Of a stretch of 64,000 nucleotides of DNA, positions 13,414 through 19,970 are shown piece after piece. Origin of the DNA: Planctomyces sp. (lineage in GTDB: Bacteria; Planctomycetota; Planctomycetia; Planctomycetales; Planctomycetaceae); the NCBI GenBank assembly GCA_027483405.1, contig JAIXUU010000025.1, positions 11,072 to 75,071 of the forward strand, read 5' to 3'. A program made the translations under genes and the position numbers. The notes under the pieces were generated by a model. That model saw only the letters and a list, made by a program, of their open reading frames with translations, was not told the origin of the DNA and made no database searches. Each line of letters opens with the position of its first letter. Within the stretch, counting starts at the first letter, position 1.

Positions 13414-15264
13414 TTAGTTTGCGGGAACCAGAACTTCTTCGGGGAGTTCAGCCGCAGTTGCAGCCTTGTAGTCAGCCTCTGCGGCGAAGTAACCTAGTAG
13501 GGCGAGAACTTCCTGAACACGAGCATCAAAGGTGGCCTGCTCGCGCAGGTTCAATCTCAAGAGATCGCTCGCGCCCTCATTTAATCGAATGGTTTCAAAT
13601 CGTTGCATCTCTTCGTTGAGACGGACAGAAGCACTGGCCTGACCAATGGCACGATAGGCATTTTCCAGGGCAATGACGGCAGTGCGAACTTCGACGGAGA
13701 TTTTATCAGCGGTGAATTGGCGTTTGGCCATATTCTGAGCCAGCTTCCCTTCCACCATCATGATTTTTCCGTTGGCGTTTCGACGTTGCAAAGGAACGGT
13801 AAACTGCAAACCGGCTTCTCCCTGAAAGGGACCTTTATCGTTAATCGAACTGGTTGGCCCGCCGACATCTTTTGTGGCAAGAACATGTGCGCCGAGTGTC
13901 GGCAGGAGTTCGTTCTGGGCTCTGGACAACTCGATCGATAACTGCTGACGGTCGAAATCGAGTGCCAGCAATTCCGGTCGGCGGGAGGTGGCAAAGGCAA
14001 TATCGGCTTCGAGCACTTCGGGAGTCACCAGCATGGGTGTTGGAAATCTTGACGGAAGCATGCTGTTGGGGGGAATAAAAGGATTACCCGCAGCGTCTCT
14101 CAAATAGAGTGAGAGTTTGACGGCCGAGCTTTGAAGCTTTTGTTCCGCTTCAATCAGCTTGACTTGCCGGGCAACTATCAATCGCTGGTTATCAATGATA
14201 TCTGATTCGGGACGGTCGCCTTCCTGAACTGTCGCGCGGATCTGCTGATCTCGATCCAGTGCCAGTGCCTGTAACTCACGAGCCACTCGCAGCCCCTGCC
14301 CTGCGGCCACCCATTCCCAATAGGCGACCGTACTATCACGAATAAACTGCAGGAGCTGGGTTTTGATCTCCGGTTCCACTTTTGATTGACCAACCTGAGT
14401 AATCCAGAGTTCAGCGCGGCGTTTGTCAATCGCACGGTTCTGCAACAGTGGAATCGCCAGACCCATCATGAACTCACCGCCATCGTTGGTTTGGCGATTT
14501 CCGTACCATGGTTCAAAGTTACCACGACCCGCGCGATAACCGGCAATCACTTCTCCACCATTCTGGAGCACGGGCTGGGCAATATCGAAACCATTGCGAT
14601 ACGTCTGGTAGTAGCCCAAGGGCTGGTTATTCAGATCAGCATTCAGCTTGAGGTCAAAAGCTCCCTGGGCAGCGAGATTGGCTCCATTGGCAATATTACG
14701 TCCATAAAGTGCATTCCTCAAAAGAGGAAACGACATGTAGACCGAGTCGATGACACTGTTGAGTACCAGGGGTGGACTGACTCGCTCATCACCCACGATG
14801 GGAATCTCATCGACACTGCCCGGGCTGGGAGGAATTTCCTGGCGGATCCTTCCGGGGAGCAAGGATCCCTCCATAAACTCATCGCCTCCACCGGCGGGAG
14901 GAGTGCTGCTTTGACCTGGTGGGGACGATGCTCCCTGTAAAGCAGCGGTCTGCTCAGCAGCAGTTGCACCTGCAGGTTCTGTATCCAGCACTTCAGAATT
15001 GGCAAGTTGAATTGTGGATGAGGTCTCGTCCGCAGGCACCTGATCTTCTGGAGTTTCAGGTGGGAAGGCTGTTTTGTTAGTTGTGTATCGAGAACTGGTC
15101 TCTTTGCCGGTGGTGTTTTCTTCGGAGATCTTGTGATTGGCGACGGTCGATTTCTCGACCGACGGTGCTGGTGAGATGGAGCGAACCACACTTGTACGAG
15201 CGGTTGAGCATCCGGCAATCACCAGGCAACCAACAAGCATCCATGCTTGTCCGGATCGCGTCAT
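13414..15264 (-). CDS. TolC-family outer-membrane efflux lipoprotein
   Basis: Lipobox LVIAGC, disordered linker, OEP repeats (RRPEL, PLQRRNANG); overlaps the upstream HlyD gene by 4 nt. Confidence 0.85.
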   Translation of the reverse strand: MTRSGQAWMLVGCLVIAGCSTARTSVVRSISPAPSVEKSTVANHKISEENTTGKETSSRYTTNKTAFPPETPEDQVPADETSSTIQLANSEVLDTEPAGATAAEQTAALQGASSPPGQSSTPPAGGGDEFMEGSLLPGRIRQEIPPSPGSVDEIPIVGDERVSPPLVLNSVIDSVYMSFPLLRNALYGRNIANGANLAAQGAFDLKLNADLNNQPLGYYQTYRNGFDIAQPVLQNGGEVIAGYRAGRGNFEPWYGNRQTNDGGEFMMGLAIPLLQNRAIDKRRAELWITQVGQSKVEPEIKTQLLQFIRDSTVAYWEWVAAGQGLRVARELQALALDRDQQIRATVQEGDRPESDIIDNQRLIVARQVKLIEAEQKLQSSAVKLSLYLRDAAGNPFIPPNSMLPSRFPTPMLVTPEVLEADIAFATSRRPELLALDFDRQQLSIELSRAQNELLPTLGAHVLATKDVGGPTSSINDKGPFQGEAGLQFTVPLQRRNANGKIMMVEGKLAQNMAKRQFTADKISVEVRTAVIALENAYRAIGQASASVRLNEEMQRFETIRLNEGASDLLRLNLREQATFDARVQEVLALLGYFAAEADYKAATAAELPEEVLVPAN

Positions 15265-16706
15265 TTTTTCCCTCGAAGAAGTTTGTCGTCCGTTGAACTC
15301 TTGTAATCATCCAGTTGAATAGCGGGTGGGAATCCGTTGAGTTGTCTCCAGAGTTCCTGCCCGATTGTGACCCGATCCAGCAACACCCAGGCTCTGGCCC
15401 GAATCCCTTGCCTCAAGACATTGGCTGTGGGCCACGGCCTTGTTTCATCCGGATCAGGCAATACCAGCACGCGAAATTTACCAATTCCGTCATCCATCGA
15501 ATCGACGACAGCGACAACACCACCGAAGGTTCCGACCGCGACTGAAGGCCAGCCGGAAAATTGAACCGCAGGCCAGCCTTCAAATTGCAACCTGACTTTG
15601 CGATGCTGGCCATCTTTAGATAGCGAGGCGACCAGCGGTGCATCATTTCCATCGACCTTGATTTCGACAGCGCGATCCGCAGTTAATGGAACGAGTTCCA
15701 AAAGCGGCGTGCCTGCCGAAATAATTTTTCCTCCCTGAAAGTTTGTCAGTCGCAGGACATAGCCATCAATCGGGGCTACCACGGACTGTACTTGCAACTT
15801 TTGTTTAGCTTGGATATCGGCGATCTCCTTCTCGGTACTGGCGATATCTCCCAACGACTTCTGATAAACGGCCCGTGCTGAGTCAATCTTGGTGATCGCC
15901 TCACGAATCTTGTAAAGTCGCTCGGCCTCTTTAGCCGACAGCTCGCTCTTGGCTGCTTCGACATAAGCATTGGCCTGTGCCAGTTTGGCCTGTTCCTCTT
16001 GAGCTTTTCGCTCAGCAATTTCGACTTCGTATCGAGATTCCACTTTCTGTTCGAAGAGCTGAATGCGTCGAATGCGATCCTTCTCGGCCTGCTCGTAGGC
16101 GGCAGTCGCTGCTTTCAGGTTCTGCTGCTCAGCAAGCAACTTCTGCCCAGCCATTTTGATGAATTCATCCTGGGCGAGTTCTGTCTGATTACGAATGGCT
16201 TCAAACGCTTGAACTTGTTGTTCGTAGGCAATGGCAATTGTCTTTTCTGTCTCGAGTTTACGCTGAGTGGCCATCAACTGTTCTTCGAGGCGAAAAATCA
16301 AAGCCGAGTCGATGACCTCAATATCCATGAGGACTTCGCCTTTTTTGACAATCGCTCCTTCCACCAACTCGGCACGAATATTCGTGATGCGACCTCCAAT
16401 GGGAGCATCGATTTCCTGCAGGCGATGATTGGGATCATAAGTGATCACTCGCCCGGAACCGACAACGGATTGCTGCCAGGGGGCGAACATCATGACAATC
16501 AGACTGATGGGCAACGCCCACAATAGTGCTGTCGAGATCCAGCGAATCGTACTGATCGGCTGGGCCAGTTGGAGTGCCGGAAAGTTCTGGGCTTGCCAGG
16601 TTTCGCCGACGTTCCAAAGCCCCAGAGTGTTGTCATGGTGACCATGATGCCCACCAGCGGGCACAATTGTGCCTTGCGGTGTGGTACTGATTTGTGTGGA
16701 AGCCAT
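15261..16706 (-). CDS. HlyD-family membrane fusion (periplasmic adaptor) protein
   Basis: N-terminal TM, IDAPIGGRI...VKKGEVL lipoyl half, long coiled coil, VVAPIDGYV...G.PLLELVP. Confidence 0.9.
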   Translation of the reverse strand: MASTQISTTPQGTIVPAGGHHGHHDNTLGLWNVGETWQAQNFPALQLAQPISTIRWISTALLWALPISLIVMMFAPWQQSVVGSGRVITYDPNHRLQEIDAPIGGRITNIRAELVEGAIVKKGEVLMDIEVIDSALIFRLEEQLMATQRKLETEKTIAIAYEQQVQAFEAIRNQTELAQDEFIKMAGQKLLAEQQNLKAATAAYEQAEKDRIRRIQLFEQKVESRYEVEIAERKAQEEQAKLAQANAYVEAAKSELSAKEAERLYKIREAITKIDSARAVYQKSLGDIASTEKEIADIQAKQKLQVQSVVAPIDGYVLRLTNFQGGKIISAGTPLLELVPLTADRAVEIKVDGNDAPLVASLSKDGQHRKVRLQFEGWPAVQFSGWPSVAVGTFGGVVAVVDSMDDGIGKFRVLVLPDPDETRPWPTANVLRQGIRARAWVLLDRVTIGQELWRQLNGFPPAIQLDDYKSSTDDKLLRGKK

Positions 16707-16818
16707 GTTTCACTCCTTCCGAGCGAATCGTGGATGATGTTCGTGATGCAGGCCTCGTCCGTTATTCAGTCAGGACGTCTTGAACTTCTTATCTGGAAAT
16801 GAAGCTCAATCTGGCATT

Positions 16819-19116
16819 CTAGGTCGCAGGTAAGGATGGTTGACGAGGTGCTTTCAAAGGTCGGGATTCGGCATTATCCATCTCGATGGTCTGGTCGCAC
16901 AGCGCGGCAACATCAGGCCGGGAGGTGGCGATGATCGTGGTCCATGTTTTGTCTGGCGCGAAGAGGACGCCCAGCAAACGCTGCCGCAAGTGGTCGGGCA
17001 AGCCATCCAGCCATCCGTCAATCAGAAGCAGACGCGGTGAGCCTGCCATGGCTCGTGCGAGCATCAGTTGCATCTGCTCCGTTGAAGAAAGCGGCTCACC
17101 TTTGGCCGATAGTTCTGTATGGATACCACCGTGTAATGTTTCAATTCGAGCCATGAGTGCGACATCTTCGAGTCGTCGCTTGACGGTTTGATCACTGACG
17201 TCGGGTCGATGCAAATGGACGTTGGTGGCAATGGAAGCAGACAGAATCTCAGGCATCTGGACGAAAGCCACCTGTGATCTGACAAGATCTTTACGAAGAT
17301 CATTCAGTGGTAAACCATCGAGCTCGATGATTCCCTCGAATTCGTAGGCCTCACCTGCCAGGGCCGAGAGAATTTTTGACCGATGCTCCGGCTGATTATC
17401 CAGAATGGCCAGCGATGAACCCGGAGTCACGGTACAAGTTAAATGGGGAGTCATCCAATGACCGACACCGGGCGAATGGCCCCACGAAACATTTCGCATA
17501 TCGAGAGCGATCGGTTTGCGTGATTCAGGCAACAAGACCCCTCTTTGCTGGGTCACAGGCAGGTCGAACAGATGGCCCAGTTTATTCACCGCCGCCATGA
17601 GATCGAACCATTCTTCAAGATGTTTACCGAGTTTCAGAAACGAACCCACAATGGTGGCGACAATCAGTTCGGCAGCGACGAGTTGGCCGAGTGTCAGTTG
17701 TTCTCGAAGTACAAGATAACCACCCAGGCCCAGCAGGGCGGTTGCTGCCACAGCCTGGAGTATCGCTAGAGCAATGTATTGCCTGAGAACAATCGTAAAG
17801 TGACTTTGCCTCGCATTGAGATAACGTGTGCATAGCGCATCGCTTCTTTGCCAAGCCAGAGCAGCACCATCAGGGGTGCGGAAGATCGCAGGGACGCGAA
17901 CCAGTTCTTCGAACCAGGCTAGTGCCATGTATTTATTGTTCGATTCTTCGATGGAAGTTCGCACCCCTCCGCGCCCCATTGTCAAAATGATGATCGACAA
18001 CAGCACAATCAGGACAAGGTCATAACCGAGAAGAAACGGATGATAGAACGCCATCAATGTCATACCGACAATTGTTGCCAGAATGATCGCTAATCCATCC
18101 ACCAGCAGGCTGCTGATGACTTTCTGAAGTGTCACCACTTCCAGAAACCGATTGACGAGTTCCTGTCCATCATGATGCAGCCATTCGGCTTCTTTGACTC
18201 GCGGAAGCCGCCATGCCAGGTCGGCAGTAATGCGAGTGAACAGGCGGCGTTGGATCACTTCTGAGATATAGATCTTCAGAATCTGGAAGGCGCCGAGCAG
18301 ACTTAATAGCCCCAGGAGAATAATGCTCAGAACAATAATTGGCTGGAAGACACCGCCAAAAGTCACCGCACGGACAAGTTGTTGAGCCGCTAATGGAGCC
18401 GAGACTGATAACAGGCCAGCCGCACATGCCATCAGGAAAATCGTCCAGATTTCATTTTTCTCTGGCGCGATCATGCGCAGCAGACGTTTCCAGGGAGGCT
18501 GGTGGTGCTCGTGGCCGGCACCCAGCCCATCGATATTGGGCTCAAAAACGACACAGCGCGCAGCAACTTGTGGAAAACTCTGGACGAAATTGAGCCAGGG
18601 CAAGTCTTTGCCGTAAAGCTCATTGGCAAACTCCATGGCCAGCGTTTTTTTTCGTCCCGAGACGACGAACAGCCTCTCAGTCAGTTCTGGTGCGGCTTTC
18701 GAAGATGGAGCTGAGGCGTTTGGAATTGGCACAGTTGGAATTGGTTCAGTGCGACAAAGGGCGATACCACCATGTTTCGCAAGTGCATGAACTTCACTGA
18801 TCGTCAGATCCATGAGCCGGATGGCCAAACCATGAGACCTGGCAACTTCGATGGCCCACTTCCACCACTTACTGTCGAAGTCACCCTGCCAGCACCGGGC
18901 GGCTGCTTCGAGTTCTCGTTGAACGATCAGAGGTTCCCACGGATTTTCAGTGAGTCTACCGAATTCGACCAGTGCGCCGGCTAAAGCCGCACCCTGACTC
19001 GTACCGGATGAGAAGCACTCGGTTTCATCTCCGTAGTCGTTTCGATCAGTCTCCGCGTGGCGGAGTTCCCCCGGCTCAGCTCTCGATGTCGAAGATGATA
19101 ATCTGCTCACAACCAA
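16819..19116 (-). CDS. Type I secretion-type ABC half-transporter (C39-like N-terminus, TMD, degenerate NBD)
   Basis: Six-TM ABC membrane domain with LTLGQLVAAE; NBD fold recognisable, but Walker A, signature, Walker B and H-switch are all substituted. Confidence 0.85.
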   Translation of the reverse strand: MVVSRLSSSTSRAEPGELRHAETDRNDYGDETECFSSGTSQGAALAGALVEFGRLTENPWEPLIVQRELEAAARCWQGDFDSKWWKWAIEVARSHGLAIRLMDLTISEVHALAKHGGIALCRTEPIPTVPIPNASAPSSKAAPELTERLFVVSGRKKTLAMEFANELYGKDLPWLNFVQSFPQVAARCVVFEPNIDGLGAGHEHHQPPWKRLLRMIAPEKNEIWTIFLMACAAGLLSVSAPLAAQQLVRAVTFGGVFQPIIVLSIILLGLLSLLGAFQILKIYISEVIQRRLFTRITADLAWRLPRVKEAEWLHHDGQELVNRFLEVVTLQKVISSLLVDGLAIILATIVGMTLMAFYHPFLLGYDLVLIVLLSIIILTMGRGGVRTSIEESNNKYMALAWFEELVRVPAIFRTPDGAALAWQRSDALCTRYLNARQSHFTIVLRQYIALAILQAVAATALLGLGGYLVLREQLTLGQLVAAELIVATIVGSFLKLGKHLEEWFDLMAAVNKLGHLFDLPVTQQRGVLLPESRKPIALDMRNVSWGHSPGVGHWMTPHLTCTVTPGSSLAILDNQPEHRSKILSALAGEAYEFEGIIELDGLPLNDLRKDLVRSQVAFVQMPEILSASIATNVHLHRPDVSDQTVKRRLEDVALMARIETLHGGIHTELSAKGEPLSSTEQMQLMLARAMAGSPRLLLIDGWLDGLPDHLRQRLLGVLFAPDKTWTTIIATSRPDVAALCDQTIEMDNAESRPLKAPRQPSLPAT

Positions 19117-19147
19117 TGCTCTCCAGGAGATTCAATTTTGATGCAAA

Positions 19148-19702
19148 TTATGTCGGCAGGGTCGTGGAAGAGTCTGACAGATCCGTCGGTTTGTCGACCA
19201 CAACCGTTTCGGAAAAATCAGTTGGATTGAAACTGCGATGTTCACCGAATGAAGTCTGTTCCGGCAAGCGATCGCCTGACATTCCATTAGATCGTGATGG
19301 CTCCGGCTGAGGGACGACCTTCTGCTGCAGAACGTGTGCCTCCCGACTCATCGACGAACTTGCATTTGTGGATGCATTGCTATCTGTCCCGGAGTTCTCT
19401 ATCTGATCTGGTGTGGGTTGATCGAGGAACACATTTCCCATTCTCAGCCACTCGGCGAGCCGGGGATTTGCCAGCCGGTAATAAACATGCCTGCCTGAAC
19501 GGCGTTCTTTGAGCAATTTGCGGGTTCTCAAGAGTGCCAGGTGTTGTGAAACTCCGGAGTGGCTGATTCCCAGCAACTCTTGCAGAGAATTCACGTTACG
19601 TTCACTGTCACGCAATTCTTCCACAATCTGGACGCGGCAGGGATGCGACAGGACTCCAAGAAGCTCGGCCATTTCCCTGGTAGCAACAGTCGAGGACGGC
19701 AT
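19148..19702 (-). CDS. ArsR/SmtB-family regulator with low-complexity C-terminal tail
   Basis: LSHPCRVQIV, SHSGVSQHLALLR, RRSGRHVYYRL; start trimmed to MPSSTV. Confidence 0.85.
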   Translation of the reverse strand: MPSSTVATREMAELLGVLSHPCRVQIVEELRDSERNVNSLQELLGISHSGVSQHLALLRTRKLLKERRSGRHVYYRLANPRLAEWLRMGNVFLDQPTPDQIENSGTDSNASTNASSSMSREAHVLQQKVVPQPEPSRSNGMSGDRLPEQTSFGEHRSFNPTDFSETVVVDKPTDLSDSSTTLPT

Positions 19703-19970
19703 CGATCGACACCTTTCGATGTTTGAATCTGTGTACGGGTTACTGTTACGACTGTAGATACGTTGATCGGCGTTAGAAAGATGACAAAATCGTAAGAAAA
19801 AGTTTGGCAGTGGCAAGTTGAACCAGGTTGTCCTTCTTGTTGCAGCAGGAATTGCCGACTGCCCCTTCAGGTGGCTGTCAGGCAGGATGGCCAATCGCTA
19901 CGATTTGAAATTATTGACTGAATGTCTGCAGATCGAATGTTCAAGAGAGTTCGAGAGGGAGTGGGCTGAG

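Follow-up and report, generated by a model that had tools for sequence, protein, structure and literature searches.

A 64-kb stretch of DNA from Planctomyces sp. (contig JAIXUU010000025.1 of assembly GCA_027483405.1), referred to below as the window and analyzed at its full length, carries on its minus strand an operon of the HlyD/TolC type in which every ATPase motif of the sole ATP-binding cassette (ABC) protein is degenerate. The best overall explanation, held with a little more confidence than doubt, is that this operon encodes a tripartite exporter whose ABC-fold subunit forms a homodimer, keeps its nucleotide-binding domain (NBD) as a non-ATPase module and would be powered otherwise than by hydrolyzing ATP itself. 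The operon region extends from 13414 to 19894 and contains four co-directional genes:

19148..19702, minus strand: ArsR/SmtB-family winged-helix regulator, first gene of the operon (NF033788 and Pfam HTH_5)
16819..19116, minus strand: HlyB/PCAT1-like ABC-fold inner-membrane subunit, 765 amino acids (aa), all ATPase motifs degenerate
15261..16706, minus strand: HlyD-family periplasmic adaptor, 481 aa, with one transmembrane (TM) helix (PF13437; TIGR01843, 60 bits)
13414..15264, minus strand: outer-membrane factor (OMF) of the OEP/TolC family, 616 aa (PF02321, 60.5 bits over two stretches)

The ABC protein comprises three domains, the last of which holds the degenerate motifs:

18502..18999, minus strand: N-terminal C39-like domain, residues 40-205, ending in the His-rich linker HEHH (18502-18513)
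17557..18501, minus strand: six-helix type IV ABC-exporter transmembrane domain (TMD), residues 206-520, with the strongest conservation in the protein (helices taken from the structural model)
16873..17556, minus strand: degenerate NBD, residues 521-748 (PF00005, 32.4 bits; predicted local distance difference test (pLDDT) score of 90-98)
17377..17400, minus strand: Walker A equivalent, DNQPEHRS against the consensus GxxGxGKS/T, with all three Gly residues and the Lys replaced
17248..17271, minus strand: Q-loop equivalent, VAFVQMPE (family consensus VALVRxxE), in which the canonical Gln is absent
17077..17091, minus strand: signature equivalent, LSSTE against LSGGQ
17014..17031, minus strand: Walker B, LLLIDG, with Gly where the catalytic Glu would stand, the Asp being invariant in the family
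16918..16932, minus strand: H-loop equivalent, IATSR (TGR in the family), without a His

Retranslation of 16819-19116 on the minus strand gave motif readings and coordinates identical to those of an earlier note made from the sequence alone, which had read DNQPEHRS, LSSTE, LLLIDG and IATSR at these positions and had singled out 16819-17460, a span that covers residues 553-765 and corresponds to the NBD. In HMMER alignments, the same stretches fall opposite the GxxGxGKS, Q-loop, LSGGQ, LLLDE and AHR motifs of the ABCB10 and P-glycoprotein NBDs. The P-loop Gly and Lys residues, the catalytic base and the switch His are needed for an ABC protein to bind and hydrolyze ATP. Given that the P-loop Gly and Lys residues are replaced here by Asp, Pro, His and Arg and that the catalytic base and switch His are missing, neither binding nor hydrolysis of ATP is expected, and the Planctopirus protein most probably neither hydrolyzes nor canonically binds the nucleotide. 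At the other end of the protein, no Pfam Peptidase_C39 match was found, and Cys34, the only Cys near the N terminus, is not conserved in the ortholog of 78% identity (L006); the N-terminal domain is therefore C39-like without the nucleophile, as in HlyB.

The source of the window is a Planctopirus. Its orthologs in P. ephydatiae (97% identity), in P. hydrillae (96%) and in a metagenome-assembled genome (MAG) labeled 'Planctomyces sp.' (78%) keep the gene order and have the degenerate motifs in common, so that the intact motifs which the earlier note allowed for in close relatives were not encountered. Ratios of nonsynonymous to synonymous substitution rates (dN/dS) were determined for each domain of the window protein by the Nei-Gojobori method. 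Against P. ephydatiae, values of 0.088, 0.042 and 0.31 were obtained for the NBD, the TMD and the N-terminal domain, respectively, and the TMD values ranged from 0.02 to 0.04. Against the 78% ortholog, the NBD dN was 0.185, with dS saturated. The NBD is clearly under purifying selection, though less constrained than the TMD; the earlier note had proposed dN/dS in orthologs as a check on whether the degeneracy is conserved under such selection.

An AlphaFold2 (AF2) model calculated from 121 family sequences, most of them P-loop-bearing, had a pLDDT of 83.8 and a predicted template modeling score of 0.83, with the NBD blocks at a pLDDT of 90-98. The top Foldseek matches to this model were PCAT1 (6v9z) and HlyB (8dck and 7sgr), aligned over ∼715-727 columns with the N-terminal domain included. 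Among curated families, the best NCBIfam match was TIGR03796, and the nearest families were those of type I secretion systems (T1SS) and NHLP-type bacteriocin exporters, for which the scores were 83-111 bits against cutoffs of 510-853. TIGR01846, TIGR03375 and TIGR01842, for example, scored 83.2, 102.8 and 97.2 bits, and their cutoffs of 725, 693 and 510 were not reached. These sub-cutoff scores place the ABC protein outside every curated family, and in combination with the missing ATPase features they mean that it is not to be classed as an ordinary T1SS component. The P-loop-bearing relatives likewise fall below the T1SS cutoffs.

The family to which the protein belongs was sampled through the best 120 homologs and the best 80 loci of a collection holding one genome per species, ∼200 relatives in all; the scan of the genome collection was pattern-dependent. 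The best 120 homologs are mostly from Planctomycetota and are 37-45% identical to the window protein. When the C39-like domain and TMD were searched against 1.84 billion representative proteins, 1,233 clusters (50% identity) were recovered at E ≤ 1e-30 and only 2,046 at E ≤ 0.001, which indicates a large and sharply delimited family. The catalytic Glu, the H-loop His and the Q-loop Gln are gone in nearly all sampled members. The residue after the Walker B Asp is Gly in nearly all of them and sometimes Ser, Thr, His or Ala; the H-loop of the family reads TGR, the Q-loop position is R or D, and the signature reads PL(S/T)xxQ, as in PLTxNQ. A normal P-loop, GxSGSGKS, is still present in most family members, for example in the Gimesia alba protein P0038. 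No description of a family of degenerate ABC proteins of this kind was found in full-text searches of open-access papers.

Members without a recognizable P-loop form one clade that includes Planctopirus, Planctellipticum, a Schlesneria-like MAG and others (support of 100 with FastTree; SH-aLRT of 100 with IQ-TREE under LG+C20 after removal of the P-loop columns). This clade is sister, with a support of 99, to a P-loop-bearing group that contains a Schlesneria paludicola record. Several further, independent P-loop losses lie elsewhere in the tree, with at least 16 changes of P-loop state in a tree of 205 rows. Within the P-loop-less clade, mean identity is 38% for the NBD and 66% for the TMD, an NBD/TMD ratio of 0.57 against 0.69. 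Even so, many NBD positions are invariant in this clade (such as G526, G566, D600, R613, N632, H634, R637, P675, A687, R688, P694, D700, D704, T726 and T731), and an NBD identity as low as 38% combined with such invariant positions implies that the loss of the P-loop is ancient and that the domain is still maintained.

In three basal members of the family, Walker B ends in Asp-Glu or Asp-Asp, the H-loop His is present and the P-loop is normal; the signature of one of them, L067, is near-canonical (LSSGQ). Their ABC genes are as follows:

L067, 7482-9716: basal ABC gene
L080, 7398-9674: basal ABC gene (Tautonia sociabilis)
L081, 2706-4439: basal ABC gene

The presence of Glu and His in basal members points to a stepwise loss, from a catalytic protein through a non-catalytic one with a P-loop to one without a P-loop, and L067, L080 and L081 are apparently ATPase-competent natural comparators. 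As read from the alignments and trees, the degeneracy is family-wide, stepwise and ancient, and the loss of the P-loop is the clade's own step.

Natural members that would lack the NBD altogether were considered and set aside. P0146, P0126, P0266, P0233 and others stop just past the TMD or within the NBD, and because these abrupt ends (one in the middle of Walker A) resemble contig-end fragments, natural deletion of the NBD is not claimed. An in-frame stop divides the family ABC gene of one Pirellulaceae MAG into two reading frames (L072, 7950-9368 and 9372-10139), which reflects either a pseudogene or an assembly error. Several records carry labels from outside the planctomycetes, namely L055, L059, L076 and L086 (Methylococcales MAGs), L078 (Polyangiaceae), L087 (Akkermansia-labeled), L023, L049 and L062, and mis-binning may account for some of them. 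The Methylococcales group forms a deep clade of its own with DG, DT or DA at the end of Walker B and no His.

Each of ∼85 loci contains a single family ABC gene, which is followed directly by a HlyD gene in nearly every locus where the contig continues and usually then by an OMF gene. No second exporter-type ABC gene was present within ∼8 kb in any of these loci; an active partner encoded in the same operon elsewhere, as the earlier note had envisaged, was thus not seen. The window itself agrees with that note in having neither a second ABC gene nor an RTX passenger: neither phmmer, run with a P-loop-bearing relative, nor a regular expression for the motifs detected a second ABC NBD anywhere in the 64 kb, no open reading frame (ORF) contained two or more GGxGxD repeats, and none exceeded 770 aa. 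There is no double-glycine peptide gene near the operon and no conserved cargo-like gene beside the cassette across loci. The best 80 genome loci come from 80 different records, with a single Planctopirus locus (P. hydrillae) among them. One locus per record and one gene per locus argue for one family copy per genome and hence for a homodimer, which is most likely the state in which the ABC protein works.

Canonical NBDs in the flanks of the loci, located by regular expression, comprised, besides L067 itself, an importer ATPase (Pfam ABC_tran and oligo_HPY) and proteins with two NBDs. The latter were found in 4 of ∼80 loci, beside the OMF gene or near the cassette, where a rough estimate of chance occurrence gives ∼1 locus:

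L026, 13584-15305, plus strand: two-NBD protein of ABC-F type (ABC_tran twice and ABC_tran_Xtn, Pfam)
L056, 13546-15288, minus strand: two-NBD protein of ABC-F type (same Pfam domains)
L080, 13676-15718, minus strand: two-NBD protein
L042, 3919-5589, plus strand: two-NBD protein

As candidate partners these were rejected, being soluble ABC-F proteins or an oligopeptide-importer ATPase whose proximity was judged coincidental or unexplained; a two-NBD protein is absent from the window.

The order of the window operon (ArsR, ABC, HlyD and a TolC-type OMF) and its intact ABC frame had been described in the earlier note, and the gene and profile assignments agree with that description. The ArsR gene ends 31 nt before the start of the ABC gene, 112 nt separate the ABC and HlyD genes, and the HlyD and OEP genes share a 4-nt overlap. 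The ABC gene starts with TTG, preceded by GGAG 6-9 nt upstream, and its 765-codon frame is uninterrupted. A strong Shine-Dalgarno sequence of the GGAG type, GGAAGGAG, precedes the HlyD gene, and the OMF has a lipoprotein signal with the lipobox IAGC. Promoter and terminator scans yielded matches at chance level only. Two short contigs from biofilm metatranscriptomes (runs X2 and X3), originating from a strain ∼96% identical, overlap parts of the ABC and ArsR genes:

18464-18652: metatranscriptome contig match, ∼96% identity
19582-19832: metatranscriptome contig match, ∼96% identity

These contigs hint at transcription in a related strain in nature and are too weak to indicate an operon transcript.

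Under the favored reading, the operon would specify a tripartite envelope-spanning exporter made up of the HlyB-like protein, a HlyD adaptor and a lipoprotein TolC-type channel, together with an ArsR-family regulator. The family, mainly planctomycete, would derive from T1SS- or PCAT-type ABC exporters. Catalysis by the NBD would have been lost long ago through replacement of Glu by Gly and of His by Arg, loss of Gln and degeneration of the signature, and an ancient sub-clade including Planctopirus would additionally have lost the P-loop. The NBD would persist as a folded cytoplasmic module on the coupling helices, with a part in dimerization, gating or regulation, and the homodimer would move its substrate through the conserved TMD into the HlyD-OMF duct with energy that does not come from its own ATP hydrolysis. 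Of the two readings offered in the earlier note, that of a channel energized or gated differently is accordingly the better one, and that of an unlinked active partner is disfavored by the single copy in each of the ∼85 loci. The machine is probably not driven by the ATPase of its ABC protein. By analogy with SbmA/BacA, an ion-motive force may be the likeliest source, and coupling to it through the conserved TMD would be the likeliest alternative to ATP. The TMD has ∼50 invariant columns across the family, including charged and polar residues of the helices; D340, H359, D366, Q478 and E483, in or near the membrane, are all invariant, and residues of the cytoplasmic helix extensions (NRF and E391/S392/K395) are strongly conserved. 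This conservation extends throughout the family to its basal members.

Several points weigh against this reading. The loss of ATP binding is deduced from motif chemistry, and the alignment behind the AF2 model is dominated by P-loop-bearing members. The basal members that have Glu and His conserve D340, D366 and E483 to the same degree, which makes these residues a family trait and not an adaptation to ATP independence. Retention of the NBD, the helix-extension residues and the Walker B Asp could fit equally well with an NBD that docks a partner or a ligand. In addition, the transcript evidence for the operon is thin.

Among the alternatives, it is unlikely that the protein is no longer an active pump and serves, without energy coupling, as a passive gated conduit or as a scaffold for assembly of the HlyD-OMF duct; in one variant it would be a release valve or an envelope tether that opens in response to a ligand or to the level of regulator-controlled expression. 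The loss of all nucleotide motifs would suit such a role, as would the relaxed constraint on the NBD relative to the TMD, which is more pronounced in the P-loop-less clade (0.57 against 0.69), and the dedicated regulators (ArsR here, NhaR-type in 22 loci; see below) suggest conditional deployment. However, ∼50 invariant TMD columns and a TMD dN/dS of 0.02-0.04 are more than a scaffold needs, and without energy coupling, a duct that opens to the outside would let cytoplasm or periplasm leak out.

A further alternative, which we regard as quite unlikely, is that the NBD has taken on another ligand (phosphate, a metal ion or a second messenger), through which the TMD is controlled or driven, the system then perhaps serving in cation or metal efflux of the CzcCBA kind. 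The regulator encoded upstream belongs to a family that would be in keeping with it. The ArsR gene product scores 79.8 bits against NF033788 (HTH_metalloreg; cutoff of 55) and also matches Pfam HTH_5; its ORF extends to a TTG at 19894, and the ortholog is annotated from the Met equivalent to position 19702 (184 aa in L004). In Planctopirus and three other lineages, an ArsR-family gene lies directly ahead of the cassette in the same orientation. By eye, however, neither an α3N CxC site nor an α5 DxH...H/E site for metal is present: the α3 region reads ERNVNSLQE, the α5 region ANPRLAEWLRMGNVF, and only an HPC motif is seen, near α2. No inverted repeat that could serve as an ArsR operator palindrome was found in 19080-19900.

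The regulator most common in the family is of a different kind and is not a metalloregulator, which also speaks against metal control. An NhaR-type LysR regulator (NF008284, 250.6 bits against a cutoff of 219) is encoded within 8 kb of the cassette in 22 of ∼80 loci, and in about half of these 22 its gene is divergent and ∼100-800 bp upstream of the ABC gene. The linkage spans basal, P-loop-bearing and P-loop-less members. Examples of these genes are:

L007, 8577-9500, minus strand: NhaR-type gene
L012, 6480-7496: NhaR-type gene
L021, 6024-6950: NhaR-type gene
L060, 5965-6888: NhaR-type gene

Between the NhaR and ABC genes, ∼14 loci have a conserved ORF of ∼110 aa that appears by eye to be of the HPF/RaiA type and has no Pfam or NCBIfam match. 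Its consensus is ...RE.AERRL.FALSRF...I.RV.V.L.D.NGPRGG.DK.CRI..., and the following are examples, with ∼10 more in the family:

L012, 7575-7952, plus strand: ∼110-aa ORF
L060, 6965-7429, plus strand: ∼110-aa ORF
L058, 2815-3165, plus strand: ∼110-aa ORF
L066, 3034-3486, plus strand: ∼110-aa ORF

Both the NhaR gene and the HPF-like ORF are absent from the window.

His-rich segments also bear on metal. The cytoplasmic linker before TM1 contains, across the family, 2.6 His per 27 residues, a ∼4-fold enrichment over a background of 2.4%; at least three His residues occur in the 27-residue linker of 80 of 193 members, with HGHGHGHGHGHDH as extremes and HEHH in the window protein. The cytoplasmic N terminus of the Planctopirus adaptor is His-rich as well (GGHHGHHD, window ∼16629-16652). 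Binding of a metal or other ligand would further accord with the invariance of the Walker B Asp and of D704 despite the loss of the P-loop, and with the four invariant membrane residues D340, H359, D366 and E483. The regulators and His-rich segments together give weak hints of inducible cation or metal export. The hint is weak because the ArsR protein lacks the known metal sites by eye, because the linker is not His-rich in many members and because the His tail of the adaptor is genus-specific, occurring only in Planctopirus orthologs. Moreover, no metal-related genes flank the operon.

Quite unlikely as well is a heterodimer with a catalytically active ABC half-transporter encoded at an unlinked site, after the manner of TM287/288, TmrAB and BmrCD but with the two genes apart. 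Exporters with one degenerate site are well established (PMC7756269), and the retention of the NBD and the cytoplasmic helix-extension residues under selection speaks for such a pairing. Known pairs, however, have adjacent genes, whereas a single family ABC gene is present in each of the ∼85 loci examined here, with one locus only from P. hydrillae and 80 records behind the best 80 loci. Since both the Walker A, Walker B and H-loop side and the signature side are lost, one site of a hybrid dimer would be dead and the other would carry a defective signature. Because the nearest paralogous clade also lacks Glu and His, the partner would have to come from another ABC subfamily and meet a TMD interface with which it had not co-evolved; an unlinked partner of that origin would be unprecedented.

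Almost no credence is given to a sequencing error or to the view that an ordinary T1SS ABC transporter is here decaying into a pseudogene: all motifs are hit together, as in a relic, but recent decay is contradicted by the intact 765-codon frame, by motifs identical in three other Planctopirus-like genomes, by the NBD dN/dS of 0.088 and by a P-loop-less clade that is monophyletic and ancient and, at 38% mean NBD identity, has many invariant NBD positions.

In type I secretion and ABC-type tripartite efflux, ATP hydrolysis by the ABC subunit is taken to be the power source. A sole ABC subunit that would be unable to hydrolyze ATP, and in one clade probably unable to bind it, contradicts that assumption. 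The graded series from catalytic through ATP-binding but non-catalytic to P-loop-less members offers a test bed for what an NBD does beyond supplying energy. Should the TMD run on ion gradients with the NBD still attached, the family would supply the link that is missing on the way from ABC exporters to SbmA-type secondary transporters. In planctomycete biology, the family stands for a regulated, envelope-spanning system that is widespread. A bolder proposal, which we advance tentatively and consider possible but rather improbable, is that the whole family is an ATP-independent engine for the HlyD-TolC duct, driven by ion-motive force, with the NBD as a fossil domain for gating or dimerization and with cation or metal export as the direction indicated. 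If that were true, the family would be a fourth energization class of tripartite systems beside the ABC, RND and MFS classes, and the series from Glu- and His-bearing to P-loop-less members would record a transition from primary to secondary transport.

Among known systems, HlyB-HlyD-TolC of E. coli (7SGR and 8DCK) and the LssB/PrtD T1SS have the same domain order as the window protein, with a C39-like domain without the nucleophile, a type IV TMD and an NBD. The fold of HlyB is alike (Foldseek E value of 2e-20 over ∼715 columns), and the window gene likewise adjoins HlyD and OMF genes. Unlike HlyB-type T1SS, the window system has degenerate ATPase motifs, sub-cutoff scores and no RTX or other cargo nearby; its OMF is an operon-encoded lipoprotein, and the family has dedicated regulators of the ArsR or NhaR type. 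An N-terminal domain of C39 fold is shared with PCAT1 (6V9Z/4RY2) and the NHLP-type bacteriocin exporters (TIGR03796/TIGR03797), from which the window protein differs in lacking the catalytic Cys, a Peptidase_C39 match and the ATPase motifs, and in having neither a double-glycine peptide gene nor a second ABC subunit near its gene.

The heterodimeric exporters TM287/288, TmrAB, BmrCD and MsRv1273c/72c show the same type of loss, in the Walker B Glu, the H-loop His and the signature. In heterodimeric type IV exporters, which are encoded by a pair of adjacent genes, one degenerate site is combined with one consensus site (PMC7756269). The window system, by contrast, has a single gene with both halves of the site degenerate and no P-loop in its clade.

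SbmA and BacA, the SLiPTs, are proton-driven secondary transporters that arose from type IV ABC transporters by loss of the NBD and that use a ladder of glutamates (PMC13316013). The likeness lies in a TMD of the type IV ABC-exporter kind that descends from full ABC transporters and, probably so in the present family, has ceased to depend on ATP. SLiPTs have no NBD or coupling helices, possess extra TM0 helices, are importers and work without an adaptor or OMF, whereas the family described here keeps a folded NBD and conserved helix-extension residues within a tripartite export operon. In studies of LmrA-MD and MsbA, the TMD of an ABC exporter has reportedly been coupled to ion gradients. Those proteins are ATPase-competent or artificial truncations; in the present family, by contrast, the loss of the ATPase is natural and family-wide.

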